A stretch of 49,941 bases of DNA, from positions 1 to 49,941 of the forward strand of contig CAZBQC010000002.1 of the NCBI GenBank assembly GCA_964494015.1, read 5' to 3'. The notes under the pieces are model-generated. The model searched no databases. It was given only the letters and a program-made list of their open reading frames with translations, and was not told where the DNA came from. This document shows positions 7,348-39,318 of the stretch, one piece after another (position 1 is the stretch's first letter; every line of letters starts with the position of its first letter). The position numbers and the translations under genes were made by a program. Source of the stretch: an uncultured Muribaculaceae bacterium. GTDB taxonomy: Bacteria; Bacillota_I; Bacilli_A; RF39; UBA660.

Positions 7348-7421
7348 AGGGGCATAGTTAAATGGTATAATAGCGGTCTCCAAAACCGTGGTTGGGAGTT
7401 CAATCCTCTCTGCCCCTGCCA
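7348..7421 (+). tRNA. trnW: tRNA-Trp (anticodon CCA), CCA end encoded
   Basis: Acceptor AGGGGCA/TGCCCCT, anticodon arm GCGGT-CTCCAAA-ACCGT, T arm GGGAG-TTCAATC-CTCTC, discriminator G followed by CCA. Confidence 0.9.
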
Positions 7422-16719: not shown

Positions 16720-17166
16720 ATGGGAAAAGAAAAAATAACTTTTGAACAAATGTTGTCATCGATAATGGTATTATATTCTAACAATATTAATGATTATGAC
16801 TTGGATCAGATAATAAAGGATTTTCTTACTAAGTATAATGATAATAATGATAAATATGAATTAGTATTTGAACCTTTAAGATATTTGTCTCATTTTGTTG
16901 AGGAAAGAGGAGAATACTTTAGGTTCAAAGAGGGTTTTGAATTTAATACTGATATTAGTAAAACAATTCAATGGACTAGACCATGTACTTTAGAAGAATA
17001 TTTAGTTATAGTAGCTGGTAGAGAAGTATTTAATGACATGTATGAATTAATATTGGAAGCAAAGGAAGATGAAGTAATAGCTGAATCAGAGGAACAAAAA
17101 GTTTCAGCTGAACTTTTCGAAGATCCGTATTTTAAGAGATTAAGTAAGTTTTACGGTGGAAAATAA
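16720..17166 (+). CDS. Hypothetical protein
   Basis: Start set at MGKEKITFE (AAGGAGG 6 nt upstream) rather than the track start at 16654. Confidence 0.5.
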   Translation: MGKEKITFEQMLSSIMVLYSNNINDYDLDQIIKDFLTKYNDNNDKYELVFEPLRYLSHFVEERGEYFRFKEGFEFNTDISKTIQWTRPCTLEEYLVIVAGREVFNDMYELILEAKEDEVIAESEEQKVSAELFEDPYFKRLSKFYGGK

Positions 17167-17189
17167 TGCATTTCCACCGTAAAATTTTT
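17149..17189 (+). terminator. Intrinsic terminator; upstream boundary of operon 1
   Basis: 14-bp stem TTTTACGGTGGAAA / TTTCCACCGTAAAA followed by TTTTT. Confidence 0.8.
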
Positions 17190-17273
17190 GCAAATATTTT
17201 ATGAAACTATCTTCATTTTGGTAGGTTTTTAGATAAAAAACAGCACTTTCTTTAGTAAAATTATTAATAGAGG

Positions 17274-17301
17274 TTGACTTTTTAAATGAAAATCGTATAA
17301 T
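17274..17301 (+). promoter_or_regulatory. Putative promoter of operon 1
   Basis: TTGACT at 17274-17279, a 16-nt spacer, and a consensus TATAAT at 17296-17301. It lies ~120 nt upstream of the small precursor ORF. Confidence 0.55.
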
Positions 17302-17419
17302 AGTTTACAATTATATGGAGACATTATCCTCTTAGAATTAACTTTTTAACTAGTCTATGTAATTATTTGTGTTATAGAATTCGTAAGAATTTTATATAGA
17401 ATAAGAAAGGATGGTTTCA

Positions 17420-17518
17420 ATGAAAAATTTTGAAAAAAAAGTGAATCCAACAATTTCTGTTATCAAAAATAACGGCACAAAAGTTTGTATGGCTGTTGGA
17501 ACATGTCATTGTAACTAA
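17420..17518 (+). CDS. Unannotated 32-aa Cys-rich small ORF; candidate RiPP precursor peptide (MKNFEKKVNPTISVIKNNGTKVCMAVGTCHCN)
   Basis: ATG at 17420 preceded by AGAAAGGATGG. Lys/Asn-rich N-terminal half and a C-terminal CMAVGTCHCN with three Cys. TAA at 17516-17518. It sits immediately upstream of a radical-SAM/SPASM gene and is below the 60-aa cutoff of the ORF track. Confidence 0.65.
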   Translation: MKNFEKKVNPTISVIKNNGTKVCMAVGTCHCN

Positions 17519-17523
17519 TCACA

Positions 17524-17570
17524 CATAAAAGTGGTGTTGGCTATAACGCCGACACCACTTTTATGATTAT
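17524..17570 (+). terminator. Strong hairpin with a U-rich tail between precursor ORF and maturase genes (candidate leaky terminator/attenuator)
   Basis: 18-bp stem CATAAAAGTGGTGTTGGC / GCCGACACCACTTTTATG (one G-U pair), loop TATAAC, then ATTATT. GC-rich core GTGGTGTTGGC...GCCGACACCAC followed by TTTTATGATTATT. Confidence 0.65.
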
Positions 17571-18781
17571 TGAAAGGAGCATGTTGGTTGAACGCATATG
17601 TAAATAATGAAGTAGTAGTTGTAAACAACATCTTTGAAAATAAATTATTTATTTATAATAGAATTAAGCGAATAGATTATGATATAAACGAAGATACTTT
17701 TGATATTATCATGGATATAAAAAAGAACAATTATGAATTGGAACAATTAAAACAGAAATATGGAGAATATTTTATAAATCAATTGTTTGATTTGGAAATA
17801 TTGACACTAACACCTCAAAGTAATTCAATAAATGTTAAAAAAGTTGATAAACAGAATAATGTAAGAATTTTTGCTGAATTAACAGATAAATGTAATTTAA
17901 AATGCAAGCATTGTTATGGATCGTTTGGATATAAAAATAGTAATGAATTGGATTTAGAAGATTTAAAGTTATTAGTTGATAACGCAGCATTAAATGGTGT
18001 ATATCAATTTGATTTGACTGGCGGTGAGCCATTTATATATCCATGTATTGAAGAGTTACTTTGCCACTTATATAATGCTGGAATGTTAGTAAGAATTTTT
18101 ACTAACCTAACCATTTTCGGTAAAAAACAGTTAGATATGATTCTAAAATACGGAGTAAAAAATATTATTACAAGCATAGATTCTTCAAGAAAAAGAATTC
18201 ACGAGGAATTTAGAGGACAAATAGGGTGTTTTGATAAAACAGTCAATTCCATAAATATTTTAAAAGAAAATAATGTGGATGTAACTATTAATACAATGAT
18301 AGGAAATCATAATAAGGATCATGTTGACGAAATTGTAAAGTTCATTGAAGAAATGGAAGTTAAAAGTGTATTAGATGTTATTGTACCCGAAGGTAGGGCA
18401 ATCGCATTAAATGAAGATACATTTGAATCTGCTAATATAATAAAGAATATTTATAGAAATCATTATAGTATTATTGATCCTAATGCAATTTCAATTAATT
18501 GTGGAATAGGAGATCGCTTTGTTTATTTAAAATCTGATGGAAATATATATATTTGTCCAAGTTTAATTTCCAAGGAATACAAAATAGGCAGTATAAAGGA
18601 TTTTGACACTAATGAAATTTGGAGGAAATTATCAAATAAATTTGGGTATTTATGTTGTAAAAAATACAAAATAGAATGTGGTAAATGTAAAGGTGGATGT
18701 AGAGCAAGAGCCCTAAAATTAAATGGAAACATTAATCAAAAAGATGATATTTATTGCATTGTTAATGAGATTGAGAGTTAA
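17570..18781 (+). CDS. Radical SAM/SPASM peptide-modifying enzyme with an N-terminal PqqD/RRE-like extension
   Basis: CNLKCKHCYG (CxxxCxxC), LTGGEPF, and a C-terminal SPASM-type Cys cluster (CGIGDRFVYLKSDGNIYICPS ... CCKKYKIECGKCKGGCRARA ... DIYC). About 95 aa precede the rSAM motif. The likely true start is the in-frame TTG at 17588, 9 nt after AAAGGAG. Confidence 0.8.
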   Translation: MKGACWLNAYVNNEVVVVNNIFENKLFIYNRIKRIDYDINEDTFDIIMDIKKNNYELEQLKQKYGEYFINQLFDLEILTLTPQSNSINVKKVDKQNNVRIFAELTDKCNLKCKHCYGSFGYKNSNELDLEDLKLLVDNAALNGVYQFDLTGGEPFIYPCIEELLCHLYNAGMLVRIFTNLTIFGKKQLDMILKYGVKNIITSIDSSRKRIHEEFRGQIGCFDKTVNSINILKENNVDVTINTMIGNHNKDHVDEIVKFIEEMEVKSVLDVIVPEGRAIALNEDTFESANIIKNIYRNHYSIIDPNAISINCGIGDRFVYLKSDGNIYICPSLISKEYKIGSIKDFDTNEIWRKLSNKFGYLCCKKYKIECGKCKGGCRARALKLNGNINQKDDIYCIVNEIES

Positions 18782-18782
18782 T

Positions 18783-19601
18783 ATGAAGAAATATTTAGGA
18801 ACGGAAAATGCAACATTGGAGTTAAAATTTTTTAATATAAGTAAATATTCGCAATTTTTTAAAAAAAATATAGATTTTATAATATCACAAAATTTTCAGA
18901 GAATAATTTTATATATATCTGATAGTGAAATTGAAATGCTTATTTCAGAAATTAAAGACTTTTTCAATGATACAAATATATTAATAATAATTTATAGTTA
19001 TTTTAAAGAATATAAAGAATTTTCCCTACCAGACAATGTTATATTGGTTAATGAAAATGAAGAAGTTTATGTTGTCGCAAATAAAATATTTAATAGTATT
19101 AAGTTAAATAAAAAATCAGTAGATGCCATTATCCGGTATGTAAAAGATAATAATAATATTATTATTGATGTTACGCCAAATATAAATCACATATCTGAAT
19201 TTAATGAATTGATAACTACTTTAATGACGCACTTGGATGGGATAGCTATTAATTTTTCTGGTTTGATAATTCCTAGTTTCTTGATAAGAGAACATCCCTG
19301 TAATGCTTATTTATGCGATGGTTGGAAGTGTGGTCTACAAATAAGTTGCTTGCCAAAACATATATTAATAGACGATGATTTTAATGTATATCCACATGAT
19401 TTAGTTTATTCGAAATTAAAAATTGGTAATGTAACATCAAATAAATTACAAAATGTATTAGAATCATATCTTGTTTCTGAAGAGTATAAAAATTTTCAGA
19501 TATATAACAAAAATGTATTCATAAAAAAATTAGCAAATTATCCTTTTGATTATATGCCCTTACTGGAATATATAAGATCAGAGGCAGAAAATGATAAGTA
19601 G
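18783..19601 (+). CDS. Radical-SAM-like accessory protein lacking the CxxxCxxC motif but keeping a Cys-rich SPASM/twitch-like segment
   Basis: 272 aa from the ATG at 18783, 1 nt after the previous stop. No CxxxCxxC anywhere. The C-terminal third has HPCNAYLCDGWKCGLQISCLPKHILIDDDFNVYPHD...KIGNV, which resembles the auxiliary-cluster region of SPASM enzymes. Confidence 0.45.
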   Translation: MKKYLGTENATLELKFFNISKYSQFFKKNIDFIISQNFQRIILYISDSEIEMLISEIKDFFNDTNILIIIYSYFKEYKEFSLPDNVILVNENEEVYVVANKIFNSIKLNKKSVDAIIRYVKDNNNIIIDVTPNINHISEFNELITTLMTHLDGIAINFSGLIIPSFLIREHPCNAYLCDGWKCGLQISCLPKHILIDDDFNVYPHDLVYSKLKIGNVTSNKLQNVLESYLVSEEYKNFQIYNKNVFIKKLANYPFDYMPLLEYIRSEAENDK

Positions 19602-20499
19602 AGCAAATATTATTTTAACTCACAATTGTAATTTGAGATGTTTACATTGTTATATAGATGCTAAAACCAGTAGTGAAAATCAAGAAGAAATTTTAACTAG
19701 AACAAAAAAAATTATTTATCAATTATATAAAGATAATGTTAAAAGTATAATGTTTACTGGTGGGGAATGTATGTTATTTAGGCCACTACTAGAACTAATT
19801 AGGTATGCTAAAAATTATCAAATGTCAGTAACGATTTTTACAAATGGAATGATATTTAATAAAGAAATTTTTGATTTAGTTGATGCCGTAAACATTAGTT
19901 TAGACGGAACAAAAGAAATTCATAATTATATTAGACAAAATAATTATTCTTATGATAATGTAGTTAAAGTTTTGGATTATTTAAAAAAAATCGATAAATA
20001 TACTACTATTCAAATGACGATAAATAACTTGAATGTTAATGATTTGGATTTTTTATCTCCGTTATTAATGCAGCACTTAAATGTTAGAACAGTGAAATTA
20101 GTTTTTATATCATCAGATGGTAGAGCAATAGAAAATAATTTAGTACATGAACATACACATATTGATAAAATATATGATAAAATTGATACTCTTTATGAAG
20201 CCACGAAATATCATATTCAATTTGTTCCAAGTATTATTAATAAATATGATTTTGAAAATTATTATGTAAGTGGAGTATTGGATTTTGCTCTATGGATAGA
20301 TGTTCCGGAAAATACTTATTATTTTATAAGTAATAAATATATGCCTAGTCATACATTGGATGATTTTAATATACAAGAAGCAAATAGATGCAATAACAAA
20401 ATTAAACAAATTATCTCAGATAGCAAATCTTTAATAATTAAAGATGAGTATATTAATTTGGAAAAAACACTTTCTGAATTAATTAAGGGAGAATTATAA
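19591..20499 (+). CDS. Radical SAM enzyme (core domain only, no SPASM Cys cluster)
   Basis: THNCNLRCLHCY and FTGGECMLF. Only one further Cys occurs in the C-terminal 200 aa. It overlaps the previous gene by 11 nt. Confidence 0.75.
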   Translation: MISRANIILTHNCNLRCLHCYIDAKTSSENQEEILTRTKKIIYQLYKDNVKSIMFTGGECMLFRPLLELIRYAKNYQMSVTIFTNGMIFNKEIFDLVDAVNISLDGTKEIHNYIRQNNYSYDNVVKVLDYLKKIDKYTTIQMTINNLNVNDLDFLSPLLMQHLNVRTVKLVFISSDGRAIENNLVHEHTHIDKIYDKIDTLYEATKYHIQFVPSIINKYDFENYYVSGVLDFALWIDVPENTYYFISNKYMPSHTLDDFNIQEANRCNNKIKQIISDSKSLIIKDEYINLEKTLSELIKGEL

Positions 20500-22442
20500 T
20501 GAATGAAAAGCCAGTAATGACATTAGGAATATTCGCTCATGCGAATGCCGGAAAAACTACTATAACAGAGCAATTATTGTATCATACCAATGTAAAAAAG
20601 ACTCGTGGCAGAGTAGACAATGGTGACACTACAACAGATAATTTAAAAGTAGAGCGTGAAAGAGGTGTATCAGTCAGAGCTTCTTTAGTGACTTTATCTT
20701 TGAGTGATAGGAAAGTACAATTAATTGATACTCCAGGACATGTAGATTTTTCTGCTGAAGTAGAAAGAGCAATCAGTGTACTTGATGGTGCAATTTTAGT
20801 AGTATCGGGTGTTGAAGGTGTTGAATCACAAACACAAGTGATATGGAAAATATTAATGGAAAGGAATATTCCAACATTAATATTTATTAATAAAATGGAT
20901 AGAGTGGGTGCTGATTATGATAGAGTAATTGCTGAAATGAAAGCTAAATTAAGTACCAATATACTTCCTATAGTTAAAGTAAAAAAAGAACAGGATGGTA
21001 CGCTTTCATATAAAGATGTGAAAATTGAAAATATAATAGAAGATATAGCAAGTTATGATGATAATATTTTAGAAAGATATTTGAACGATGAAAAAATATC
21101 AAGAGAATGGTTAGAAGAGCAAGTCAAAAGAATGGCACAAACTGGATTATTATATTTAGTTTATGGTGGAAGTGCATTGCTAGATGAAGGTATGTATCAT
21201 TTAATTAATGGAATATCATCCTATTTACCTGTAGCATCAAAATCAAAATCGTCAGATTTTACTGGGTATATATATACAGTAAAAAGAGATGCTGGAGTTC
21301 GAGAGTTATATGTAAAAGTATTAGAAGGTGAATTAGAAAACAGATATGAGTTTATCACTGATCATGGTTTAAAACAAAAAGTTAGAACAATAACAAAACT
21401 AGAAGGAACGAAACGAACAAGAAGCGAAAGATTAGAAACCGGAGAGATAGGTATTATTACTGGACTTGATGCAAAATGTGGAGATCTTATTGGTAAACCA
21501 ATTCCTAATTTTAAACCTTTTTCATTTGTTAATCCATTATTTCATACTTCTATAACTACTAATAGCAATAGATTACATGAGTTGGTAACTGCTCTTGAAA
21601 TATTAAACGATGAAGATCCATCATTGAATTTACAATACAATAATAATACTGGACAAATTAGCATTGATTTAATGGGAAATTTGCAATCAGAGATAATTGC
21701 AAATATAATAAAGGATAGGTTTCAAATTGATGCAGTATTTTCTGATCCAATAATAATTCATCGTGAAACTCCAATATCTATTGGAAAAGGTGAATGTACT
21801 TTTGATAGGGTATCAGCAGTTGAATTTGAAATTCAGCCTTTACCAATTGGAAGTGGATTACATTACTCATCAAAAATTTCAACCGACTATTTGTTTGCAA
21901 AATACCAAAAACAAATTGAAAAGTTAATAAGAAGTTATTTAAAACAAGGTTTGTATGGTTGGGAAGTTACTGATGCAATGATAACATTAATAGGTGGTAA
22001 GAGCGACTCTGTTTGTTCAGATCCATCACACTTTAATGTGATTGTTCCTCTTGCTTTTATGAGAGCCTTAAAAAATGCTGAAATGCAATTAGAAGAACCA
22101 ATGATGAAATATGAAATAACTGTACCAAACGAAAATATTAGACAAGTATTATCTTCCGTTTCATCATTAGGAGTTAAATATGAAAAAATAATAACTTTAT
22201 CTGAAAACTCCATAATTCCAGGTAATGCACCATTGTCCAGTATAATTGATTTACCGACAATAATAACTAGATTAACCGGTGGTCATGGCAGTTTAATAAA
22301 GAAACCAAATGGTTATCAACCACGTCCAAATATAGATTTGATTGAAAAGAAAGTTATTGGTAGAGATCCAAGAAATGAAATATTATTTTTAATGGATATG
22401 GGGTGCAGTATGGAACATATTGATAGGTCGAAAAGGAAATAA
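20499..22442 (+). CDS. Translational GTPase of the Tet(M)/Tet(O) ribosomal-protection / EF-G-like family
   Basis: 647 aa, which is ribosomal-protection-protein length and shorter than EF-G. G1 AHANAGKTT, G2-region GRVDNGDTTTDNLKVERERGVS (compare Tet(M) [22 protein letters not shown], recalled from memory), G3 DTPGHVDF, G4 NKMDR. The start ATG overlaps the preceding stop (TAATG). Confidence 0.75.
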   Translation: MNEKPVMTLGIFAHANAGKTTITEQLLYHTNVKKTRGRVDNGDTTTDNLKVERERGVSVRASLVTLSLSDRKVQLIDTPGHVDFSAEVERAISVLDGAILVVSGVEGVESQTQVIWKILMERNIPTLIFINKMDRVGADYDRVIAEMKAKLSTNILPIVKVKKEQDGTLSYKDVKIENIIEDIASYDDNILERYLNDEKISREWLEEQVKRMAQTGLLYLVYGGSALLDEGMYHLINGISSYLPVASKSKSSDFTGYIYTVKRDAGVRELYVKVLEGELENRYEFITDHGLKQKVRTITKLEGTKRTRSERLETGEIGIITGLDAKCGDLIGKPIPNFKPFSFVNPLFHTSITTNSNRLHELVTALEILNDEDPSLNLQYNNNTGQISIDLMGNLQSEIIANIIKDRFQIDAVFSDPIIIHRETPISIGKGECTFDRVSAVEFEIQPLPIGSGLHYSSKISTDYLFAKYQKQIEKLIRSYLKQGLYGWEVTDAMITLIGGKSDSVCSDPSHFNVIVPLAFMRALKNAEMQLEEPMMKYEITVPNENIRQVLSSVSSLGVKYEKIITLSENSIIPGNAPLSSIIDLPTIITRLTGGHGSLIKKPNGYQPRPNIDLIEKKVIGRDPRNEILFLMDMGCSMEHIDRSKRK

Positions 22443-22451
22443 AGTGTTAAT

Positions 22452-23579
22452 ATGATAGATATAAGATTAAAAAAAATGGCCGAATCAATTATTAAATATT
22501 CACTTAATATAAGACCAGGGGAAAAAGTTTTAATTGATTCCAGTAAAAATTGTAGTGAAATGATTAAATATTTAATTGAATTAATTGCAAATAATGGTGC
22601 AATTCCATTAGTAATTATTAAAGAAAATGATATTCAAAGAAGCTTAATAATGAACGGTAGTCAAGAACAGTTTGAAATTATGAGGAAGCACGAACAAATG
22701 TTACTAGAGTGTGTTGATGTATATATTAATATGATGGATTCGGATAATTGTTATGATATGTCTGATATTCCAAGTGATAAACGGTCACTATATCAGCAAT
22801 ATTATTTCAAGCCAATTAATTTTGAAGTAATTATGCCAAAACTTAGATGGATAACTGTAGACTATCCATCCGTGTCATCAGCACAACAATTTGGCATGAG
22901 TACAGAAGCATATGAAAAATATTTCTTTGATGCTGTCAATACAGATTATAAAGAGTTACATACCGCAATGATACCTTTAAAAAACATACTTGATAAGGGA
23001 AGGCATGTTCAAATAACATCTCCAGATACAACAAATTTATCTTTTGATATAACCGAATTTAAAGCTGTGATTTGTAGTGGTAAAATAAATATTCCTGATG
23101 GAGAGGTGTTTATTGCTCCAGATTTAAAATCATTAAATGGAACAATTAAATTTAATGTTCCATCTCGTTACTCTGGAAAGCAATTCTCGAACATTTTTCT
23201 TACATTTGAGAATGGTAAAGTAATTAGTCATAATTCAGATACGAATAGTTCTTCACTAACCTCTTTATTGGATATTTCTGAAGGCAATAGATATGTTGGA
23301 GAATTTGCTATAGGAACAAACCCAAACATTGATACACCAAGGACAAACATTTTATTTGATGAAAAAATATTAGGCTCTATTCATTTAGCCTTAGGAAATA
23401 GTCATAGTTTAAGTGACAACGGAAATGTTGGATCAATTCATTGGGATATGGTTAAAATGTTAACTCCTGAATATGGCGGTGGAAGTGTTATTATTGATGA
23501 TCGATTGATTCAAGAAAATGGAATATTTATTCCAGAAGAATTAAAGTCCCTACATTCTAAAAAATTAGTTAGGAAATAA
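22452..23579 (+). CDS. M29-family aminopeptidase (AmpS/PepS-like)
   Basis: IKYSLNIRPGEKVLI, INIPDGEVFIAP, GEFAIGTN, IHLALGNS and IHWDMV follow the thermophilic-metalloprotease M29 motif order. Confidence 0.75.
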   Translation: MIDIRLKKMAESIIKYSLNIRPGEKVLIDSSKNCSEMIKYLIELIANNGAIPLVIIKENDIQRSLIMNGSQEQFEIMRKHEQMLLECVDVYINMMDSDNCYDMSDIPSDKRSLYQQYYFKPINFEVIMPKLRWITVDYPSVSSAQQFGMSTEAYEKYFFDAVNTDYKELHTAMIPLKNILDKGRHVQITSPDTTNLSFDITEFKAVICSGKINIPDGEVFIAPDLKSLNGTIKFNVPSRYSGKQFSNIFLTFENGKVISHNSDTNSSSLTSLLDISEGNRYVGEFAIGTNPNIDTPRTNILFDEKILGSIHLALGNSHSLSDNGNVGSIHWDMVKMLTPEYGGGSVIIDDRLIQENGIFIPEELKSLHSKKLVRK

Positions 23580-23629
23580 TGGTAAAAGAGTAGAATCAAA
23601 AAATTAAATTATAAAAGGAGGTAATTTGA

Positions 23630-24103
23630 ATGGAATTAGTTCAAATTAAACAAAAAGATTTAGAAATATTAGAAAGGTTATTGCAGTTATATTTACACGA
23701 CATTAGTAAATATTTTCCAATAGAATTTGAGGAAAATACAGGGTTATATCTGTATGATGGTTTAGACAAATATTTTGATGGTTCAAAAAATTATGCTTAT
23801 TTTATAAAATTAGAAAAAAAAATAGCCGGCTTTATTTTGGTTGATTCTAATGAAAATGAAAAAATTATTCAAGAAATGTTTGTTTTAAATCATCATAAAA
23901 ACAAAGGTATTGGTAAATTAGCTGTTTGCAAAGTGTTAGAGAATAGTAAAGGTAATTGGATTATAAAGTCCTTACCGAATTCTGAACCTGCTGAAAGATT
24001 TTGGGATAGAACAATAAAAGAATATACTAATAATAGTTATCATGTTGAACATGTTGGTAGATATAATAGAGCTGTTTTTACTTTTAATAATAGTGATAAA
24101 TAA
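23630..24103 (+). CDS. GNAT-family N-acetyltransferase
   Basis: 157 aa. Acetyl-CoA-binding region QEMFVLNHHKNKGIGKLAV and C-terminal AERFWDRTIKEY. Strong RBS AAGGAGG. Confidence 0.7.
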   Translation: MELVQIKQKDLEILERLLQLYLHDISKYFPIEFEENTGLYLYDGLDKYFDGSKNYAYFIKLEKKIAGFILVDSNENEKIIQEMFVLNHHKNKGIGKLAVCKVLENSKGNWIIKSLPNSEPAERFWDRTIKEYTNNSYHVEHVGRYNRAVFTFNNSDK

Positions 24104-24104
24104 T

Positions 24105-25295
24105 ATGGAAGTATATTTAAGAAGAAAGAGTGAGGAATTAGAGTTTTTGTCTGGTTTTATAGATAATGAATTTCAGCATGCTCGTTTGATTGCACCAGCC
24201 AATGTTATATCAGTAAAAGAGCAAATAACTAAAGAGATTAGAAATAAAAACAGTATAAAATACTATCATGAATTAACAAATAAAACTAAAATTGGATTCA
24301 ATGATATATTTGAATACAACTATACATATGAACGATTTAATGGTTTTATAAAAATTCCATATTTTGCGAATGATTTTTATCATATAGAAAAAAATGTTAT
24401 CACAGAAACTTATTTTTCTAATTGTGGTATGAGTTCCATAGTTTCGCTTTTATCATCAATAATTTCCGCAAATGATTGTAGTGTGGACTTAATGTATGAG
24501 GAAACTTACTTTGAAACAATAAAGTTTCTTAGTTCGATAATAAAAGTAAAAAATCAAGATTTTTTTCTTTATATTGATTCAATAGCAAGTAATTTTAGCT
24601 TTCTTGATGATTTTAATTCTGATAATTATCTTGGAGTAATTATTGATACAACTTGTTTTGTTGGTGAAGATTATAAAAAAATGATAAACTATATAATATC
24701 GACAGGAACACCATGTGTTTTAGTACGTAGTCATACTAAAATAGATTTACTTGCAACAGAATACTCACATATTGGATCCGTTTCATTTATTTATCCGAAA
24801 ATTGAAAATAATAAAACAAAGAGAGTAAAAAAAGTTGAAACTGATTGTAAACATTTAATAGGTGTTTTTGGAGCTTGTTTACCTCCAGAAAAGTTTCCAA
24901 CTTTTATATTAAATAATAAAATAAAAACATTAAATAATAACAGAATAAAAATTGTTAATGAAAACAATAGTTTATTCTTTTCTATTTTGAAAGATTATAA
25001 AATTAATGTGATTTTACCGAATCATAGGCAATTCTGCTTGATATATTTAAAAACCATTTCAGGTACATTAGAGGATTTAAAACAGAAAATATATAATTTT
25101 TGCAAAGAAAATGAGAAGGAATTTCTAACTTACTCAGCTGTAAGTTTTGGTTTTGATTATATTTCCATTGACTGTTATCAAAATTTTGTGGATTCAACAT
25201 TTAAAATTAGGGTATGTATAAATGATTTTCCAAAATTAGTTATAGAAAGCTTCGCTTACAAATTTATTGAATTTTTAAAAATAATTGATGACTAA
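24105..25295 (+). CDS. Hypothetical protein; possibly a divergent fold-type I PLP enzyme (Cys/Met-metabolism family-like)
   Basis: ATG 1 nt after the GNAT stop. The order of FSNCGMSSIVSLL, YEETY, VIIDTTCF and VLVRSHTKIDL parallels the SSGmaAi / Y.gT / vDnTfatP / hSaTKyl motifs of cystathionine synthase/lyase-type enzymes. Weak similarity judged by eye only. Confidence 0.35.
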   Translation: MEVYLRRKSEELEFLSGFIDNEFQHARLIAPANVISVKEQITKEIRNKNSIKYYHELTNKTKIGFNDIFEYNYTYERFNGFIKIPYFANDFYHIEKNVITETYFSNCGMSSIVSLLSSIISANDCSVDLMYEETYFETIKFLSSIIKVKNQDFFLYIDSIASNFSFLDDFNSDNYLGVIIDTTCFVGEDYKKMINYIISTGTPCVLVRSHTKIDLLATEYSHIGSVSFIYPKIENNKTKRVKKVETDCKHLIGVFGACLPPEKFPTFILNNKIKTLNNNRIKIVNENNSLFFSILKDYKINVILPNHRQFCLIYLKTISGTLEDLKQKIYNFCKENEKEFLTYSAVSFGFDYISIDCYQNFVDSTFKIRVCINDFPKLVIESFAYKFIEFLKIIDD

Positions 25296-25504
25296 TATTA
25301 GAATACAGTTAAAAGAGTATGAATTTGATTAATCTATATTGAAAAGAAATTATTATAAACAAAAGGCTTGTTCAAATATTTTAAATTTTCACTATAGTTA
25401 CGACTGAAAGTAATGAATATTTAAATAATATTTGAAAATTCGTAATAGTTAGTTTTAATGAAAATACATACTAAGGTGAGGTGGTATCACAATATTTTTA
25501 ACTA

Positions 25505-25513
25505 TGATATAAT
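25505..25513 (+). promoter_or_regulatory. Extended -10 element TGATATAAT upstream of the MoaA-like gene
   Basis: Same 9-mer as at 75-83, 1936-1944, 7746-7754, 14939-14947 and 16024-16032. It lies ~105 nt upstream of the ATG at 25618. Confidence 0.4.
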
Positions 25514-25617: not shown

Positions 25618-26487
25618 ATGATGAAAATAAAAAAGCTTCCAATGGATGAATTAAGGATATCGATTACTTCAAGTTGCAATATGAAGTGTTACTATTGTCA
25701 CAATGAAGGAAATAGATTAACAAGCAAACTAGATATTAATGATATAGATTCATTAATAAACGCTGCAATGAAATTTGGATTAAAAAGTATCAGATTGACT
25801 GGTGGAGAACCAATGATCTGTAATGATATTTTCAGTATTTGTAGCATGATAAAAGAAAAATATAATTTAAAAATAGGTATAAATACTAATGGCATCGAAA
25901 TAGATAAAATATTAGAATTGATTGATTCTAATTTAATTGATAGAGTGGTAGTAGGAATAGATTATTTCAATAATAAGATATCTAAGAATTCACCAGTTGG
26001 TATATGTTCTAAAGATATTTTAAGAAATATTGAATTAATCAAAAAAAGAGGTATTGGTGTTACTATTGCAACAGTTTTTGATAATGATTATAGTGATATA
26101 GAACAGTTATTTAATTGGGCTTTAACACATGACATTAGAATAAAAATTTTGGAAAAGATAGATGATGAACAAAGTGATGTTACATCTCCAGCTTATATAA
26201 AAATTAGAGATCAAATTATAGATAAATATAATTTAATACCTAAAATAGATCCTATTTTTAATGAGTTACATGGTTATCTTGGTGGAAAGAGAGTTGTTTC
26301 TTTTTTTCATTCTCATTGTCGAATAAGGGAGTGCAGATTATGTAAAAACATGCACTTGAGAGTCATGAGTAGTGGGAAGCTAAAGCCTTGTTTGCTAAAT
26401 ACGGAAACAGAAGTTGATTACAAGATAGGAAATGTTGAAAAAAATATTGTTACAGCTATTGATTTATTAGGGATACCACCTAAATAA
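25618..26487 (+). CDS. Radical SAM enzyme, MoaA-like (GTP 3',8-cyclase family architecture)
   Basis: LRISITSSCNMKCYYCHNEG, IRLTGGEPM, and a C-terminal second cluster region CRIRECRLCKNMHLRVMSSGKLKPCL. No other molybdopterin genes are in the window. Confidence 0.55.
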   Translation: MMKIKKLPMDELRISITSSCNMKCYYCHNEGNRLTSKLDINDIDSLINAAMKFGLKSIRLTGGEPMICNDIFSICSMIKEKYNLKIGINTNGIEIDKILELIDSNLIDRVVVGIDYFNNKISKNSPVGICSKDILRNIELIKKRGIGVTIATVFDNDYSDIEQLFNWALTHDIRIKILEKIDDEQSDVTSPAYIKIRDQIIDKYNLIPKIDPIFNELHGYLGGKRVVSFFHSHCRIRECRLCKNMHLRVMSSGKLKPCLLNTETEVDYKIGNVEKNIVTAIDLLGIPPK

Positions 26488-26496: not shown

Positions 26497-26540
26497 AAAA
26501 ATATGAATAAGCTTTAATAATAAAAACTTATTCATATTTT
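26497..26540. terminator. Bidirectional intrinsic terminator between convergent genes
   Basis: AAAATATGAATAAG / CTTATTCATATTTT stem with A/T flanks. Confidence 0.7.
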
Positions 26541-27314
26541 TGTGGATTTAATTTTTACTCTGTAATTATTTGAATCAAAACTAATATCTCTGGTTACATA
26601 ACTATATAATTTATTTAGTGCCTCCATATGTTCTTTCATACCTTTGGAATGGTTTAAAGAAGCCTGATCAAATAGATTAATGAACTCTTGTTCAGGAATA
26701 TTTTTAAAGGTTTTTTCTCGATATCCAGTATTGTCATGATATAATTTGTTAACTCTTGAAATAGACAACTCTGGAAATCCATACAATTGATGATAAAAAC
26801 TCCTGATTCTATCTACTAATATAGGATATAAATGAAAAAAGTAAGGATTTTTTTCTTCATACAGTATTATAAGATGTTTAATCTTATTATTCATAAATGA
26901 AATAAAATCTTTTGCCTCATCGTCTGTTAAGCCTGGGAGTGGCATACTATATAATTGAAGGACGTAGTCCTGTAATTTTTTTATATTACCGTTTCTATCA
27001 AATAAAATTTGACCATGTCCTATTGTTGATAGCAAAACATTACTTTGATTTTTAAAGTCATTCATCGCTCTAGCATATATTTCCTGAATGGGTTTTTCAT
27101 AATATTCTATGATAAAATCATCTGTTTTTTGATATCCTCTTATCAAATGATTTAAATCATCATTATTGAAAATAATTTGTAAGTCTAGATCTGAATCTTT
27201 TGTATTATAGCCTGTTAAATAACTTCCGTAAAAAACAATTCCTTCGACATTATCATTTTCAAGATATCCCATCATTTTTATAAATTTTCTTAAAGCTTCT
27301 TGATAGGAATTCAT
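26532..27314 (-). CDS. Nucleotidyltransferase-domain protein (pol-beta superfamily; possibly an antibiotic nucleotidyltransferase)
   Basis: N-terminal GIVFYGSYLTGYNTKDSDLDLQIIF (GS...D.D motif) and a helical C-terminal domain. The substrate cannot be inferred. Confidence 0.55.
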   Translation of the reverse strand: MNSYQEALRKFIKMMGYLENDNVEGIVFYGSYLTGYNTKDSDLDLQIIFNNDDLNHLIRGYQKTDDFIIEYYEKPIQEIYARAMNDFKNQSNVLLSTIGHGQILFDRNGNIKKLQDYVLQLYSMPLPGLTDDEAKDFISFMNNKIKHLIILYEEKNPYFFHLYPILVDRIRSFYHQLYGFPELSISRVNKLYHDNTGYREKTFKNIPEQEFINLFDQASLNHSKGMKEHMEALNKLYSYVTRDISFDSNNYRVKIKSTKI

Positions 27315-28444: not shown

Positions 28445-28729
28445 ATGAATAAAAGAAAACTATGGAGTAAAAAAGAAAAAATTAGAGTTGTTAGAAAAGT
28501 GTTAAGTACGAATAAATCCCTATCGACAATTGCTAAAGAAGAATCTCTCGATGTGAAAATTATTATTAGATGGGTAAGAAAGTATAATAATGAAGGAGAA
28601 AATGGTCTATCATCAAATAGGAATAAGACTTTAGCTAAGAGGACCACTCAAGAAAAAACACTAGGTTGGGAGCTGGAAAATATATTATCAAAAAAAGTTT
28701 ATTGGCTGAAAGAGGGTGTTCAAATTTAA
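28445..28729 (+). CDS. IS3-family transposase OrfA (HTH)
   Basis: WSKKEKIRVVRKVLSTNKSLSTIAKEESLDVKIIIRWVRKY is a typical IS3 OrfA helix-turn-helix. Confidence 0.8.
   Translation: MNKRKLWSKKEKIRVVRKVLSTNKSLSTIAKEESLDVKIIIRWVRKYNNEGENGLSSNRNKTLAKRTTQEKTLGWELENILSKKVYWLKEGVQI
28690..28697 (+). other. Programmed -1 ribosomal frameshift heptamer A AAA AAA (G)
   Basis: In the orfA frame the codons read TCA AAA AAA GTT. A -1 slip gives ...KKSLLAERGCSNLKV, which is the orfB frame. Confidence 0.7.
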
Positions 28730-29619
28730 AAGTTGCTTCCTCTCTTAAATTAAAGTATGCCATTATTCATCAACTTAGGAAGAATTATTCTATTAAATTT
28801 TTGTGTGATCGTTTAGATATCAATCGTAGCAGTTATTATAAGTGGTTAAAAAGCGATTGTGGTCACAGGCAAAGAAAAAAAAGAGAGAAATTAATTAAAC
28901 TTATCAACGTTATTCATGAAAACTATCCAACTTACGGATATCGAAGAATTGGATTTTTAGTTAGAAAAAGATTTAATGTTTCTGATCAATACATATATAA
29001 ATGTTGTTCATACTTAGGAATAAAGTCAAAAGTTAAAAGAAATAAGTCGAGAAATAAACCTTTAGGCATCAATAAGTATGATAATCTTGTCAATAATAAG
29101 TGGAATACTTTAAGGCCTTTAGAAATAGTAATATCTGATACCACTACTATTAATCATTGCACAGGCGAGTACAATTTAACTTTATATATTGATGCATTCA
29201 ATAATGAGATTATTAGCTATGATCTAACTGAGAAGGGACATGAAGAACTTTCTTCTCATCTTAAAGCTTTGACTAGATTTATTAAGATAAAAAAGAGTCG
29301 AGGTTACTTTAATATTAGAACGATTCTTCATACTGATCAAGGAGCAATATATGCTTCTGATGTTTTTAATGCTATTTGCAAGAACAATAATATTATTCAC
29401 AGTATGTCGAGGTTGGGTAAACCGACTGACAATGCCAAAATAGAGGCGATTAACGGTTGGATTAAACAAGAAATGGAAACAGACTTCCATTTTTTTTATG
29501 TACAAAATATTGCTCAGTTCATTAAAAAATATGTTAACTACTACAATACTGAGCGACCATCCTATAAGTTAGGTAATAAGACACCTCTTGGGTATAGGCT
29601 TGATTGTCATTTTAAATAA
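28696..29619 (+). CDS. IS3-family transposase OrfB part (DDE/rve integrase core), expressed as an OrfAB fusion
   Basis: YGYRRI, VISDTT (D), LHTDQGAIYAS (D) and GKPTDNAKIEAINGWIKQE (E). Confidence 0.8.
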   Translation, partial: SLLAERGCSNLKVASSLKLKYAIIHQLRKNYSIKFLCDRLDINRSSYYKWLKSDCGHRQRKKREKLIKLINVIHENYPTYGYRRIGFLVRKRFNVSDQYIYKCCSYLGIKSKVKRNKSRNKPLGINKYDNLVNNKWNTLRPLEIVISDTTTINHCTGEYNLTLYIDAFNNEIISYDLTEKGHEELSSHLKALTRFIKIKKSRGYFNIRTILHTDQGAIYASDVFNAICKNNNIIHSMSRLGKPTDNAKIEAINGWIKQEMETDFHFFYVQNIAQFIKKYVNYYNTERPSYKLGNKTPLGYRLDCHFK

Positions 29620-33783: not shown

Positions 33784-33946
33784 AACCATTGTATTTGGGA
33801 ATGTATCCCCAAGGTTATTTTATTGTTGCGGTATTTAATTAATTTGGGGGACTGATTTTCGGATTCTCAATTTTTATTATAAAAAGCGGAGATTATGAAA
33901 TAAAAATTATAAGATAATTTATGTGTAGCAGTCCATGGAGGATTTT

Positions 33947-36043
33947 ATGGAAGAAGATAAGATAACTGTTGTTGTACCTATGTATAATAGTGAAAAATAT
34001 ATAGAACGTTGTCTAAAATCCATATGCAATCAATCGTATCAAAATCTAGAAATTATTGTAATAGATGATGGAAGTACAGATAATAGTAAATTTATTGTTG
34101 AAAAGCTACAAGAAAGTGATTCAAGAATCAATTACTTTTACCAAGAAAATAAAGGACCAGGTTTAGCTAGAAATGTTGGGATTGAAAACGGAATAGGCAA
34201 ATATATTTCTTTTATTGATAGTGATGATGAAATAAGAAAAACATTTATTGAAGTTCTTTACAAAACTATAAGAAAAGACGACAGTTTTTCCTTAACTGGT
34301 GGATATATGATTTATCAAGATGGATCAACCGAAAAATCATTTTTAACAACAAAAACAGAAACTAAGAACTTTAAAGTTCCTATCTGTTGTAATAAACTAT
34401 TTAATTTTGAATTAATTCGAAAAAATAACTTAAGATTTCAGGGACTATATTATGCAGAGGATATAGATTTTTGGGGAAGAATTTTAATGATTAATGATAA
34501 TTTTTCGATTGCAAATGACTATTTATATTTATGCTATTTTAGAGAAGATTCTTTGACTAGAAGTTACACAGATAAAAGTATAATTTATCAAATATTCTAT
34601 GTAGTAGATAACATAGAAAAACTTGCAAAAGAAAATGAAAAGTTCGATCAGTATAAAGATAGCTTAGAATTTTTAAATATAAAAGAAATTTTTATAAGGG
34701 CAATGAAACAAATTAGTCAAATGCCTAGTTTCAGTGACTATGACATAATTAAAATGCTTGAATATGTCGAGGCAAAATATCCTAATTGGTATTATAATAA
34801 ATATATCAGATCTTCCTTTGATAAATATAGAAAGAAAAGATTGGAATTGTTATTTAAAAAAGATTTTGCCGGTTTAATTAGTTATCTTAGACAATTAAAT
34901 TCAGGATATGTAGTTCAATCTGATGAAGAGATTTTAGCACAAAATATTATTAATCATTCCATTGCTGTTGAAAAAGGACAAGCAGTTCAAATTAGGTATA
35001 AAAGCACGAAGTGTAATCCGTTAGTTATACAATTAATTAGAGAAATTCAAGAAAAAGGAGCAATTGCTATTACTAGATTTCAGGATGCAGAATTAGAAAG
35101 GGTTACAAAAGAAACATATGACATTTATGCAATGACTAAGTTGGCCGGGATAATTACAAGAGAATCTGAATTTTATGATTCATTTATATCAATTGGATAT
35201 AGTGAAAATGATTATGATTCATCAAAAAGTAATGAAAACCCAGCTAGTAGAATACTTATTAGTAATCTTACGGATTATAATAAAATTGTTCGTAATAAAA
35301 AGGGGATAGTACTTTCTTATCCTTCTCCTTTAGATGCGCATAAGTCAAAAATGACTACAGAGGAATATAAGAGATATGCTTTTTCTATTTTAAATTATGA
35401 TTACAAGTCACTTAAGTCAAAAATGGTACCATTACAGAAATTAATAGAGAAAACGAAAAAAGTTTCTATATTAGGTAAAGATACAGAGTTAAGTTTTCTT
35501 ATTGAAAATATAGGTGGAATTATCATGGCGGGAGAAGTTAATATTCCGGATGGAGAAGTATATACTGCTCCAATTAGAAATAGTGTCAATGGAATAGTAA
35601 AGTTTAATGTCCATAGCAAATACATGGGAAATGTTTACGAAAATGTGATATTAGAATTTAAAAATGGAAAGATTATTGATTTTAATTGTAACAATCCAAA
35701 TGATTTTAAAGGTATCATAGATATTGACGAGGGTAGTAGGTATATTGGAGAATTTGCTTTAGGAGTTCATCCGTTAATACTTCATCCTATATTAAGTACT
35801 CTTCATGATGAAAAAATATATGGCAGTTTTCATTTGGCATTAGGGCAGTCTTATAGGAATGCTTATAATGGAAACGATTCCAATATACATTGGGATTTAA
35901 TTGATATTCAGAGAAATGATTATAATCCAGGTAAAATATATTTTGATGAAGAATTAGTAAGAGAAAATGGAGAATTTATTTTGGATGATTTAAAACCATT
36001 AAATGACAAAAGAGCTTATACATTAACTACAAGGAGAAGATAA
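33947..36043 (+). CDS. Bifunctional fusion: N-terminal family-2 glycosyltransferase plus C-terminal M29 aminopeptidase domain
   Basis: GT2: ITVVVPMYNSEKYIERCL, IIVIDDGSTDNS and FIDSDD. M29: VNIPDGEVYTAP, GEFALGVHP, FHLALGQS and IHWDLI. Start preferred at the ATG at 33947 (GGAGG 5 nt upstream); the track start is 33935. Confidence 0.75.
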   Translation: MEEDKITVVVPMYNSEKYIERCLKSICNQSYQNLEIIVIDDGSTDNSKFIVEKLQESDSRINYFYQENKGPGLARNVGIENGIGKYISFIDSDDEIRKTFIEVLYKTIRKDDSFSLTGGYMIYQDGSTEKSFLTTKTETKNFKVPICCNKLFNFELIRKNNLRFQGLYYAEDIDFWGRILMINDNFSIANDYLYLCYFREDSLTRSYTDKSIIYQIFYVVDNIEKLAKENEKFDQYKDSLEFLNIKEIFIRAMKQISQMPSFSDYDIIKMLEYVEAKYPNWYYNKYIRSSFDKYRKKRLELLFKKDFAGLISYLRQLNSGYVVQSDEEILAQNIINHSIAVEKGQAVQIRYKSTKCNPLVIQLIREIQEKGAIAITRFQDAELERVTKETYDIYAMTKLAGIITRESEFYDSFISIGYSENDYDSSKSNENPASRILISNLTDYNKIVRNKKGIVLSYPSPLDAHKSKMTTEEYKRYAFSILNYDYKSLKSKMVPLQKLIEKTKKVSILGKDTELSFLIENIGGIIMAGEVNIPDGEVYTAPIRNSVNGIVKFNVHSKYMGNVYENVILEFKNGKIIDFNCNNPNDFKGIIDIDEGSRYIGEFALGVHPLILHPILSTLHDEKIYGSFHLALGQSYRNAYNGNDSNIHWDLIDIQRNDYNPGKIYFDEELVRENGEFILDDLKPLNDKRAYTLTTRRR

Positions 36044-36044
36044 A

Positions 36045-37166
36045 ATGACAAAAGTGCCGTCGCTGATTGTTTTAAATCTTACATCTGATTGTAATTTACG
36101 ATGTAAATATTGTTATGCTTCTGCCGGTAATTGCAAAGATTATATGACTTCAAGGTGTGCTATTGAAATAGTTACACAAGTTTCAAAATATAATGATTCT
36201 ATTGAACTACTATTTCATGGTGGCGAACCACTAATGAACTTTGAAGTTATTAAGAATGTAATAAATTTTTGCAAAAATAAATTAAAAGAAAAAGAAATAA
36301 GTTATTATATTCAAACTAATTCATTGCTTCTTACAAAAGAAAAAGCAGAATATCTAATCAATGAAAATGTTGAAATATGTCTTAGTATGGATGGTAATAC
36401 TGAAATAAGTAATAGTGGCAGGGTCGACTCTAAAGGGAATTCGAGTTTAAATATTATTAAAAGCAGAATAGAGTTATTGAAATCATTAGACTATAATACT
36501 ACCATTTTGGCAGTTCTAAATAAGAAAAATGTAGGAAAAATTGAATCATTTATAGACTATCTTGTGGAAAATAAAATTTATAATTTTTCATTAAACTATT
36601 TTATTAAAGGTGGTCGTGGTAATAATAATAAGAATCTAGCGCTAAATCCGAAAGCACTATATAATGCAACAGTAAAAACTATTAATAAAGTTTTAGAATA
36701 TCGTCGGAAAAATGTTAAAATAATAGAGAGAAATGTTTTACATTTATTAAGAAATGTTATAACCAAAAGTAAAGGTTATATGTGTATGAATAGTCCATGC
36801 GGGGCTGGTAATCATCTTTTAGGGTTCACACCGAATGGGGATATTTATCCTTGCGATGATTTAAGTTCAGTAGAACAATTTAAAATCGGAAATATTTTTG
36901 ATGGTGATTTAATGAATACCCTAGAAAATAATAGTATTGTAAATTTCTTTAACTATTGTTCTTATGATAATATTCCAAAATGTTGTTGCTGTGATTTTAA
37001 AGATCGTTGTGGAGCTGGTTGTGCATCTAGAAAATTTTATGAAAAAGGCACAATATATGAAGTTGATCCAATTTGTGAATTTTATAAAATGATAATACCA
37101 TATATAGAAAATAGAATAAAAAATGAACCGTTAATAAAGGAATTGATTGATGAACATGAAAAATGA
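36045..37166 (+). CDS. Radical SAM/SPASM enzyme (anSME-like), no N-terminal extension
   Basis: SDCNLRCKYCY, FHGGEPL and YMCMNSPCGAGNHLLGFTPNGDIYPCDD, then CCCCDFKDRCGAGCASR and PICEF. Confidence 0.8.
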   Translation: MTKVPSLIVLNLTSDCNLRCKYCYASAGNCKDYMTSRCAIEIVTQVSKYNDSIELLFHGGEPLMNFEVIKNVINFCKNKLKEKEISYYIQTNSLLLTKEKAEYLINENVEICLSMDGNTEISNSGRVDSKGNSSLNIIKSRIELLKSLDYNTTILAVLNKKNVGKIESFIDYLVENKIYNFSLNYFIKGGRGNNNKNLALNPKALYNATVKTINKVLEYRRKNVKIIERNVLHLLRNVITKSKGYMCMNSPCGAGNHLLGFTPNGDIYPCDDLSSVEQFKIGNIFDGDLMNTLENNSIVNFFNYCSYDNIPKCCCCDFKDRCGAGCASRKFYEKGTIYEVDPICEFYKMIIPYIENRIKNEPLIKELIDEHEK

Positions 37167-37845: not shown

Positions 37846-37857
37846 TGGGGTAATTAA

Positions 37858-39165: not shown

Positions 39166-39178
39166 AGGAGGTGATTAT

Positions 39179-39307: not shown

Positions 39308-39318
39308 AAGGAATTTGG

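Follow-up and report, generated by a model that had tools for sequence, protein, structure and literature searches.

Sactipeptide and ranthipeptide clusters, such as those of SkfA/SkfB, the subtilosin enzyme AlbA, CteA/CteB, PapA/PapB and the streptosactin enzyme StsB, carry a short Cys-containing precursor gene directly upstream of an N-terminally extended radical S-adenosylmethionine (rSAM)/SPASM maturase, have a terminator-like hairpin after the precursor gene, and include a C39/ATP-binding cassette (ABC) exporter, an endoprotease or an immunity transporter. The segment at positions 17274–25295 of contig CAZBQC010000002.1, analysed here within a stretch of 49,941 nucleotides (nt) that we call the window, shares the precursor, the maturase and the hairpin with these pathways for ribosomally synthesized peptides with post-translational modifications (RiPPs), and SkfB, CteB, StsB and AlbA are the best structure or NCBIfam matches of its maturase, A. 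It differs from them in that no curated cut-off is reached, in its new precursor family, and in the presence of an extra pair of proteins, B and C. Where the known clusters have an exporter, endoprotease or immunity transporter, this one has a GTPase of the ribosomal protection protein (RPP) type (D), an M29 aminopeptidase (E), a GCN5-related N-acetyltransferase (GNAT; F) and, in one subtype, a pyridoxal 5'-phosphate (PLP) enzyme (G). The segment holds eight genes, a small open reading frame (sORF) and seven ORFs:

17420–17518, forward strand: precursor gene, 32 amino acids (aa), MKNFEKKVNPTISVIKNNGTKVCMAVGTCHCN, with an AGGA ribosome-binding site, leader motif VNPTISVI and core CMAVGTCHCN
17588–18781, forward strand: A, rSAM/SPASM peptide maturase with an N-terminal extension of ~95 aa; Pfam Radical_SAM (3e-23) and SPASM
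18783–19601, forward strand: B, rSAM-fold protein without CxxxCxxC, with invariant HPCNAYLCDG..C...YPH (three Cys and one His)
19591–20499, forward strand: C, rSAM core enzyme without SPASM; Pfam Radical_SAM (1.5e-18), CNLRCLHC motif, 11-nt overlap with B
20499–22442, forward strand: D, full-length Tet(M)/Tet(O)-like ribosomal-protection-type GTPase; GTP_EFTU and EFG_III/IV/C
22452–23579, forward strand: E, M29 (AmpS/PepS-type) aminopeptidase; Pfam Peptidase_M29 (PF02073), 3.6e-48, 164.8 bits against a cut-off of 27
23630–24103, forward strand: F, generic GNAT N-acetyltransferase; Pfam Acetyltransf_1/7/10
24105–25295, forward strand: G, fold-type-I PLP enzyme related to C-S lyases; AlphaFold (AF2) model with a pLDDT of 91

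We regard it as very probable that these genes, D and E included, form a genuine and conserved RiPP cluster. With slightly more confidence than doubt, we read the segment as the biosynthetic operon of a previously undescribed rSAM RiPP family, whose product would be matured in the cytoplasm and act on the ribosome, with D providing immunity by target protection.

Three further groups of described systems bear on this assignment. Tet(M), Tet(O) and TetB(P) share with D a five-domain architecture like that of elongation factor G (EF-G) from end to end, together with intact G motifs. In the oxytetracycline cluster, self-resistance is provided by the RPP Otr(A), a precedent for an RPP gene embedded in a biosynthetic cluster, but one that serves a polyketide pathway, whereas D sits with a ribosomal peptide pathway. 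D further differs from the Tet proteins in being only 34–35% identical to TetB(P) and below the curated cut-off, in having AHANAGKTT in place of AHVDAGKTT, in its loop III, and in a C-terminal extension carrying DPRNE.

In the microcin C system (MccA heptapeptide, with the GNAT MccE and the peptidase MccF as immunity proteins), the product is directed at translation and turns toxic once an aminopeptidase has trimmed it; the amine set free is acetylated by a GNAT, and the cluster also encodes a peptidase. The tiny precursor is a common feature, and precursors of the type 1 loci described below also end in Asn. The modifying enzymes here are instead rSAM proteins, neither an MccB/ThiF-like adenylyltransferase, which acts on a C-terminal Asn, nor an MccC exporter is present, and the protection proposed here would concern the ribosome instead of an aminoacyl-tRNA synthetase. 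No ThiF-like gene was found in the cluster of the window or in any related locus, and a terminal Asn is not universal, being absent from precursors that end in CHCSA; a mechanism of the microcin C kind was therefore rejected.

In the mycofactocin (MftA-C/E) and pyrroloquinoline quinone (PQQ; PqqA/E/F) pathways, a short precursor is modified at its very C-terminal end by an rSAM/SPASM enzyme, and a cluster peptidase then frees a small modified fragment. A resembles both PqqE and MftC, but the C-terminal motif here is CHC as opposed to GVY or E..Y. Leader removal by an aminopeptidase is known from BotP of bottromycin biosynthesis and AplP of a class III lanthipeptide. The peptidase here is of family M29 and not creatininase-like, M16, M17 or M1 as in these pathways, none of which has a ribosome-protection GTPase.

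Conservation of the cluster and its precursor

The set of precursor, A, B, C, D and E was found in about 15 independent loci from metagenomes and metagenome-assembled genomes (MAGs), in at least four gene orders and with A identities down to 37%:

Type 1: sORF-A-B-C-D-E-F-G, in the window, L095, L001–6, L098, L100 and L101
Type 2: sORF-A-small protein-A2-B-C-D-E, with the GNAT gene upstream or on the opposite strand, in L007/8, L009/10 and L102
Type 3: sORF-A2-B-C-E-A-D-x-B12-rSAM, in L011/12
Fourth order: A-x-A2-B-C-E-F-D, in the P0053 locus

The surroundings of these loci range from integrase/Mob_Pre/AbiEii elements (L001–3), a conjugative element with a type IV secretion system (T4SS; L007/8) and insertion sequence (IS) elements (L011) to housekeeping genes (L004–6), and the relatives are labelled as MAGs of 'Bacilli bacterium', 'Clostridia bacterium' and 'Paraclostridium sp.'. 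That linkage is kept through such rearrangement and relocation is strong evidence that the genes act together, and the conserved core consists of the sORF, A, B, C, D and E. Within the cluster, conservation is highest for D and E (55–85% identity, compared with 27–78% for B). A search of 72,556 plasmids for protein B found none, while 1,415 records among the same plasmids gave D-like (Tet/EF-G-type) matches. Extra genes were seen in some type 1 loci: a Ham1p-like (non-canonical NTP pyrophosphatase) gene lies directly 3' of G in the mobile-element copies (L001 17710–18261 and its equivalents in L002 and L003), and in L095, E and F are separated by an additional gene of 212 aa, and G is followed by an acyltransferase gene.

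The precursor gene is conserved together with the enzymes. Orthologous sORFs lie 53–114 nt upstream of A in 11 loci (the window and 10 relatives), with one small ORF per locus at the expected place wherever the upstream DNA is intact; the background, counted over 1.28 Mb of unrelated loci, is two CHC-terminal sORFs. All 11 peptides share, without exception, the leader motif (K/N)P(T/V)I(S/T) and a CHC at the C-terminus, and they end in CHCN, CHCSA or CHCSN. The peptide of the window (VNPTISVI...CMAVGTCHCN) belongs to the CHCN group with INPTITVV...CMAVGVCHCN and VKPTITVV...YMAVGVCHCN; the CHCSA group includes VKPTITQV...FMAVASCHCSA and VKPVITVI...TLTVGGCHCSA, and a further precursor reads VKPTISVV...FACASGTCHCSA. 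Between the window and L095 the core differs by synonymous changes only, and it is under purifying selection. Precursors with an NPTI-type leader and a C-terminal CHC make up a new family, for which we use the name CHC peptides. At L099 (3780–4160), the precursor gene and the first ~24 codons of A are replaced by unrelated DNA, apparently through a rearrangement, that is a natural disruption, or as an assembly chimera.

Sister clusters place the same maturases in another setting. Locus L104 of a Paraclostridium sp. MAG (GCA_051656945.1, 795–9411) encodes a B12-rSAM protein, A, a 64-aa protein, an rSAM/SPASM protein, B, C, a CHC precursor ((V)KRENISKSTEKNKATKPVITVISSDVKNAGVSMSGCHCSN; KPVITVI...GVSMSGCHCSN) and a three-gene ABC-2 transporter, with neither a GTPase nor an M29 peptidase. 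More distant A-B-C sets occur in L093 (GCA_016841825.1, 9142–14771), with four precursors that combine an LNPTIA/T leader with Cys-free cores rich in Pro, Ile and Tyr, and in L094 (9652–15922), with several precursor copies; both loci have a major facilitator superfamily (MFS) transporter. These precursors and transporters indicate that the maturase trio also serves chemically different RiPPs. Since sister clusters have A-B-C and a transporter in the absence of D and E, and no exporter was seen in the D/E-containing loci, clusters of this one maturase family have either a transporter or the D + E pair, an exchange that would parallel that of efflux and target protection in tetracycline resistance.

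A first-pass annotation of this DNA had proposed a RiPP-like biosynthetic operon whose gene set fits no described class, and both parts of that proposal are supported. The neighbourhood recurs in many independent loci and through changes of gene order, wherever the upstream DNA is intact the homologous rSAM gene is accompanied by the sORF, at a frequency far above background, and no NCBIfam equivalog at cut-off and no description in the full-text literature searched matches the set. Its statement that exporter, endoprotease and regulator are lacking holds for the window and the D/E-containing relatives but does not extend to the sister clusters with their ABC-2 and MFS transporters.

The radical SAM proteins

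Translation of A most likely starts at TTG 17588, 8 nt after GAAAGGAG, rather than at 17570. The protein has a CNLKCKHC motif and six SPASM cysteines (C305, C323, C357, C367, C371 and C390) that are invariant across 18 homologues. Its closest solved structures are SkfB (1e-26), CteB and PqqE, and its NCBIfam likeness extends to StsB, AlbA and MftC. None of the curated NCBIfam maturase equivalogs is reached at cut-off, the scores being 108.6 of 625 bits for StsB, 78 of 850 for AlbA, 74 of 300 for SkfB and 59.5 of 340 for PapB. About 75 homologues with 37–84% identity were found in public metagenomes and MAGs, all of them unnamed proteins. A scan of genome contigs with the A alignment picked up generic rSAM patterns, and among the matches listed there were only rSAM/SPASM genes of 22–30% identity.

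B has no Pfam or NCBIfam match. Its AlphaFold model (pLDDT 82.7) matches the rSAM enzymes AbmM and SuiB as well as TIM barrels in Foldseek, and in hhalign its Cys/His motif falls on the first half of the SPASM domain of A, which together indicate that B keeps the rSAM fold and a Cys3His site but no longer has the SAM cluster. The best Protein Data Bank (PDB) match of C is SkfB; PDB sequence searches with B, as with F, were uninformative. B lies directly 5' of C in every locus, and this constant adjacency, with the overlap of the two genes, suggests that B and C are the two parts of a split enzyme.

The ribosomal-protection-type GTPase

Residues 6–609 of D align to residues 3–613 of TetO (7.9e-94) and D also matches TetM, with a weaker match to EF-G. 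Against the NCBIfam model tet_protect (NF012153) D scores 527.3 bits and does not reach the cut-off of 775, with class-specific models lower still, and its closest annotated relative on plasmids is TetB(P). The G1 motif AHANAGKTT and the G3 motif DTPGH are invariant in 12 orthologues. In a search of 1.84 billion representatives, GTPases with the AHAN motif formed at least 16 clusters at 50% identity; most of them share the C-terminal DPRNE motif, and they form a clade apart from Tet-like proteins in a neighbour-joining tree. A scan of viral contigs for this clade found nothing.

The clearest difference from the Tet proteins lies in domain IV, where the tip of loop III is the drug-dislodging element of Tet(M) and Tet(O). 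Loop III of D is GGKSDSVCSDPSHF, compared with GLYYSPVSTPADF in TetO, so that GGKSDSVCSDP sits where Tet has GLYYSPVSTP and the Tet tip Tyr-Tyr-Ser-Pro-Val-Ser-Thr-Pro, which contacts the tetracycline site, is not present. In place of LYYSPVSTP of TetO, the D clade has a conserved tip of its own, GK(S/C)D(S/H/N)V(C/G)S(D/E)P. This tip varies with the type of precursor, being GKSDSVCS(D/E)P in CHCN loci and GKCD(H/N)VGS(D/E)P in CHCSA loci.

Two members of the clade were examined in their context outside the CHC clusters. In L105 (3388–7024), an unrelated rSAM/SPASM gene of 432–450 aa is followed after 4 nt by the gene of the GTPase P0227 (43% identity to D), and a candidate Cys-containing sORF of 26 aa lies upstream (METINSNIVVDLEEVSCKNNTCDYHV); L105 is thus a second, independent pairing of an rSAM enzyme with an RPP. 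In L107 (2232–4115), from an organism of higher GC content, the GTPase P0242 (38% identity) stands alone among YceD, L32 and tyrosyl-tRNA synthetase genes, and the sole rSAM gene nearby is a divergent one of 272 aa.

The aminopeptidase, acetyltransferase and PLP enzyme

E is 49–91% identical across the related loci. Aligned to AmpS (1zjc), it keeps the Glu/Glu/His metal-ligand motifs (IPDGEVFIAPD, GEFAIG and HLALG), with HWD downstream, and no signal peptide was found in it, which places it in the cytoplasm. F is present in most loci, at shifting positions. For G, the AlphaFold model matches methionine gamma-lyase (MGL) and cystathionine beta-lyase (CBL) in Foldseek (E = 3e-10, probability 1.0), and in 36 homologues G108/M109 (the phosphate loop), D181, S209-H-T-K212 and R369 are invariant, which supplies the pyridine-N aspartate, the Schiff-base lysine and the carboxylate-binding arginine expected of this enzyme class. 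No Pfam (Cys_Met_Meta_PP) or NCBIfam match to G was obtained, and a PDB profile search reached only E ~0.9 to MGL and cystathionine gamma-lyase (CGL). G is limited to loci with a CHCN-ending precursor.

Operon structure and surroundings

The following elements, listed with the gene that follows G, bear on the expression of the cluster and on its limits:

17144–17191, forward strand: 5' boundary hairpin, intrinsic-terminator-like (-22 kcal/mol, z = -7.05) and followed by a T run; closes the upstream gene
17274–17301, forward strand: sigma-70-type promoter, TTGACT-16 nt-TATAAT, 11/12 match, the top-scoring site of the region
17302–17419, forward strand: 5' leader of 118 nt; by alignment, almost the same as in L095 over the 3' 70 nt, ribosome-binding site included
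17524–17565, forward strand: post-precursor hairpin of 18 bp followed by UUUUAU (-29.9 kcal/mol, z = -8.4)
25618–26487, forward strand: H, MoaA-like rSAM protein; best NCBIfam match moaA, 122 bits, below the cut-off of 325
26497–26541, bidirectional: 3' boundary hairpin with an AT-only stem (-13.8 kcal/mol, z = -5.1); separates the convergent genes of H and a nucleotidyltransferase

Promoter-like sites are not enriched in the region (93, compared with 90.4 in shuffled sequences), so an 11/12 match is by itself little proof of a promoter; both the -35 and the -10 hexamer are kept in the orthologous locus L095 (84% identity). No riboswitch or leader family of Rfam matched the conserved 5' untranslated region, and the sole Rfam match at the gathering threshold in the whole window is one tRNA (7348–7418, forward strand). 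The hairpin after the precursor gene is kept in L095 with one compensatory base pair. Hairpins of unrelated sequence occupy the same position in all loci checked (L001, L004, L007, L009, L101 and L011), and most of them carry a U tract. In the window, this hairpin probably acts as a terminator that attenuates transcription from the precursor gene into the enzyme genes, in a layout that resembles the classic attenuator arrangement of RiPP operons.

The genes downstream are tightly packed. The stop codon of A at 18781 is followed by the ATG of B at 18783, B and C overlap at 19591–19601, C and D share TAATG at 20497–20501, a 9-nt gap separates D from E (22442/22452), and the stop codon of F at 24103 is followed by the ATG of G at 24105. 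The first-pass annotation had described all of these junctions, the promoter, the 32-aa sORF with its strong hairpin and the two bracketing terminators, and each of these features was found again, the terminators as real hairpins on folding. Its domain calls for A (including the N-terminal extension), C, D, E and F are borne out by Pfam, and those of an rSAM-like B without CxxxCxxC and a PLP-fold-like G agree with the AlphaFold models (AbmM/SuiB and MGL/CBL, respectively). The count of nine genes, with eight ORFs after the sORF, does not stand, as seven follow the sORF within 17274–25295 and the ninth must be H, which lies outside and is not conserved. H is separated from G by a gap of 322 nt and has its own promoter-like site at 25486–25513; folding found no terminator 3' of G, and H is possibly co-transcribed with the cluster here. 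As it is absent from every related locus, H was rejected as a member of the system.

The GC content of the cluster is 26.6%, compared with 32.8% for the flanking genes, and that at third codon positions is 16.2% compared with 23.9%. Of the enrichment in Asn, Lys and Ile noted by eye, that in Asn and Ile was confirmed whereas Lys is not higher than in the flanks. The nucleotidyltransferase (26532–27314, reverse strand; Polbeta/NTP_transf_2) is a match to PDC-S09, a candidate family of PADLOC, and a transposase of an IS element, with an rve integrase core, is encoded at 28666–29619 (forward strand); their proximity suggests that the cluster lies in a variable, mobile region. A second rSAM cluster occupies 33935–41732 of the window (forward strand, 25.2% GC). 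It encodes a fusion of a family 2 glycosyltransferase (GT2) with an M29 peptidase (702 aa), two rSAM/SPASM proteins (373 and 435 aa) with a protein without an assigned family (232 aa) between them, an HD-domain protein (538 aa) and an Acetyltransf_3 GNAT, and has a candidate sORF of 42 aa at 39179–39307 (MKNKDKNFDAIMKKLLNNKKVKIKVPTYNSKVMMAHWSNGYN). The pairing of rSAM enzymes with an M29 peptidase and a GNAT thus occurs again in the same genome.

Proposed pathway and alternative explanations

In the pathway that we propose, the promoter at 17274 would drive high expression of the precursor, and the hairpin would let a fraction of transcripts pass into the enzyme genes. The leader motif (K/N)PTI(S/T)V would recruit the SkfB/CteB-like A, which would most likely install thioether cross-links from the Cys-His-Cys motif, and B and C, as an rSAM core with an rSAM-fold partner contributing the Cys3His site, could add a second modification. 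The cytoplasmic E would then trim the leader from its N-terminus up to the modified core, F would acetylate the freed amine, and in CHCN loci G would tailor the product further. D would bind the ribosome in the manner of Tet(M), where GTP and the clade-specific loop of domain IV would dislodge the product from the A-site region of the small subunit. In mercapturate-type processing of cysteine conjugates, a peptidase is followed by an N-acetyltransferase or a beta-lyase; the trio of E, F and G parallels this order, and the final product may accordingly be very small.

Because an active compound would be freed inside a producer without a dedicated exporter, the cell would need to protect the target. 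Counted for this reading are the linkage kept through rearrangement, the conserved precursors and post-precursor hairpins, the closeness of A and C to the thioether-forming SkfB and CteB, the full length, intact GTPase motifs and strong conservation of D, the co-variation of its loop III with the precursor type, the transporters of the sister clusters, the rSAM-RPP pairing in L105, the metal-ligand motifs of E and its lack of a signal peptide, and the precedent of Otr(A). A ribosome-acting product with D as its immunity factor would account for the missing exporter and endoprotease, for the swap with transporters, for the strong conservation of D and for its clade-specific loop. On sequence evidence, we judge the chances evenly balanced that D is a self-resistance protein against a ribosome-targeting product. 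More tentatively, and on balance doubtfully, the AHANAGKTT GTPases could be a sister lineage of Tet(M)/Tet(O) whose native job is to shield the ribosomes of producing anaerobic Firmicutes from a new class of small rSAM-cross-linked Cys-His-Cys peptide antibiotics that an aminopeptidase matures in the cytoplasm. In that case the clusters would point to an undiscovered RiPP scaffold that binds the ribosome and to a natural ecological origin or reservoir of ribosomal-protection-type resistance in the gut microbiome.

Several points weigh against this interpretation. The absence of an exporter is awkward for a secreted antibiotic, and the cluster is often found on mobile elements of gut bacteria, where genuine tet genes travel too. 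E, F and G could serve immunity or salvage rather than biosynthesis. The co-variation of loop III with the precursor core rests on two or three independent lineages only, and the stand-alone P0242 indicates that the D clade is not tied to RiPPs only and may have a general translational role. A had been called RRE-bearing, that is, provided with a RiPP recognition element, but the call was not upheld by profile hidden Markov models: its N-terminal 101 aa gave no Pfam match to PqqD/RRE at E ≤ 10. The only hint is a profile alignment of A with CteB that starts at residue 29, inside the RRE region of CteB. The 64–79-aa proteins of L007, L009, L011 and L104 likewise gave no PqqD/RRE match in Pfam at E ≤ 10, and BLASTP found no similarity between the N-terminus of A and the small protein of L007.

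Three other explanations were considered, and all rank lower than a biosynthetic operon with target-protection immunity. The modified peptide could be an intracellular effector or cofactor, for example a regulated translation inhibitor that serves dormancy, mobile-element addiction or abortive infection, with D reversing its action and E, F and G responsible for turnover; in the addiction variant, a stable RiPP toxin would be paired with a GTPase antidote. Such a role would fit the lack of an exporter in any D/E-containing locus, the cytoplasmic location of every enzyme and the position of many loci on integrative or conjugative elements beside integrase, Mob_Pre, AbiEii and T4SS genes, and the combination of aminopeptidase, N-acetyltransferase and C-S lyase does resemble mercapturate-type breakdown of Cys conjugates. 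It is nevertheless the minority view, as ABC-2 or MFS transporters of the kind usual for secreted RiPPs accompany the same maturase module in sister clusters, ordinary housekeeping genes surround some of the loci, and PADLOC gives no defence family beyond generic rSAM similarity. Since that similarity is of the generic, viperin-like rSAM kind, assignment to a known defence system was rejected.

The remaining two explanations concern D itself. That it is an accessory translation factor, which relieves stalling on the very short precursor mRNA or couples translation to modification, would agree with its translational coupling to C through the TAATG overlap, with the strict conservation of its GTPase motifs and with the occurrence of P0242 outside any RiPP cluster. 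We know of no RiPP pathway that requires a dedicated translational GTPase, however, and none was found in the full-text literature searched; L104 manages with A-B-C and a CHC precursor in the absence of D, and the clade-specific conservation falls on the very tip loop that dislodges the drug in Tet(M)/Tet(O), all of which makes this role improbable. Even less credible is that D is a common, though divergent, determinant of tetracycline resistance, carried along on mobile DNA next to an rSAM RiPP cluster to which it is unrelated. TetB(P), TetO and TetM are indeed the best annotated relatives of D, and several loci are on mobile elements of gut and rumen bacteria, but the linkage holds through at least four gene orders and at identities down to 41%, D overlaps or abuts biosynthetic genes, and it stays under the tet_protect cut-off (527 against 775). 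In D, other residues stand in place of the Tyr-Tyr-Ser-Pro tip, a critical element of Tet(M)/Tet(O), and B is absent from the plasmids that hold so many D-like records.

Novelty and implications

Clusters of rSAM RiPPs are a known kind; the precursor family and the accessory logic are new here. No description of a CHC-peptide cluster was found in the full-text literature searched, the cluster fits no equivalog of NCBIfam and no family of PADLOC or Rfam, and a review of translation-targeting RiPPs mentions no RPP-linked RiPP (PMC7136475). A resistance gene within a biosynthetic cluster is among the few clues to a target that can be read from sequence, and here it points to the ribosome. The peptides belong to a family from uncultured gut and rumen Firmicutes that has never been isolated.

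If the proposed reading is correct, this would be the first RiPP pathway guarded by a Tet(M)-type GTPase, its product would be a new antibiotic scaffold against a validated target, and its maturases would perform new rSAM chemistry on Cys-His-Cys, including that of a split pair of rSAM and pseudo-rSAM proteins. The cluster also gives a concrete, testable form to the old question of what RPPs protected against prior to clinical tetracyclines. Because their scores lie below the cut-offs, D-clade genes on conjugative elements could be a resistance reservoir missed by antimicrobial resistance models. The cluster is of value as a lead, guided by putative self-resistance, to a natural product that would target the ribosome, and as a way into what ribosomal-protection GTPases do in nature.

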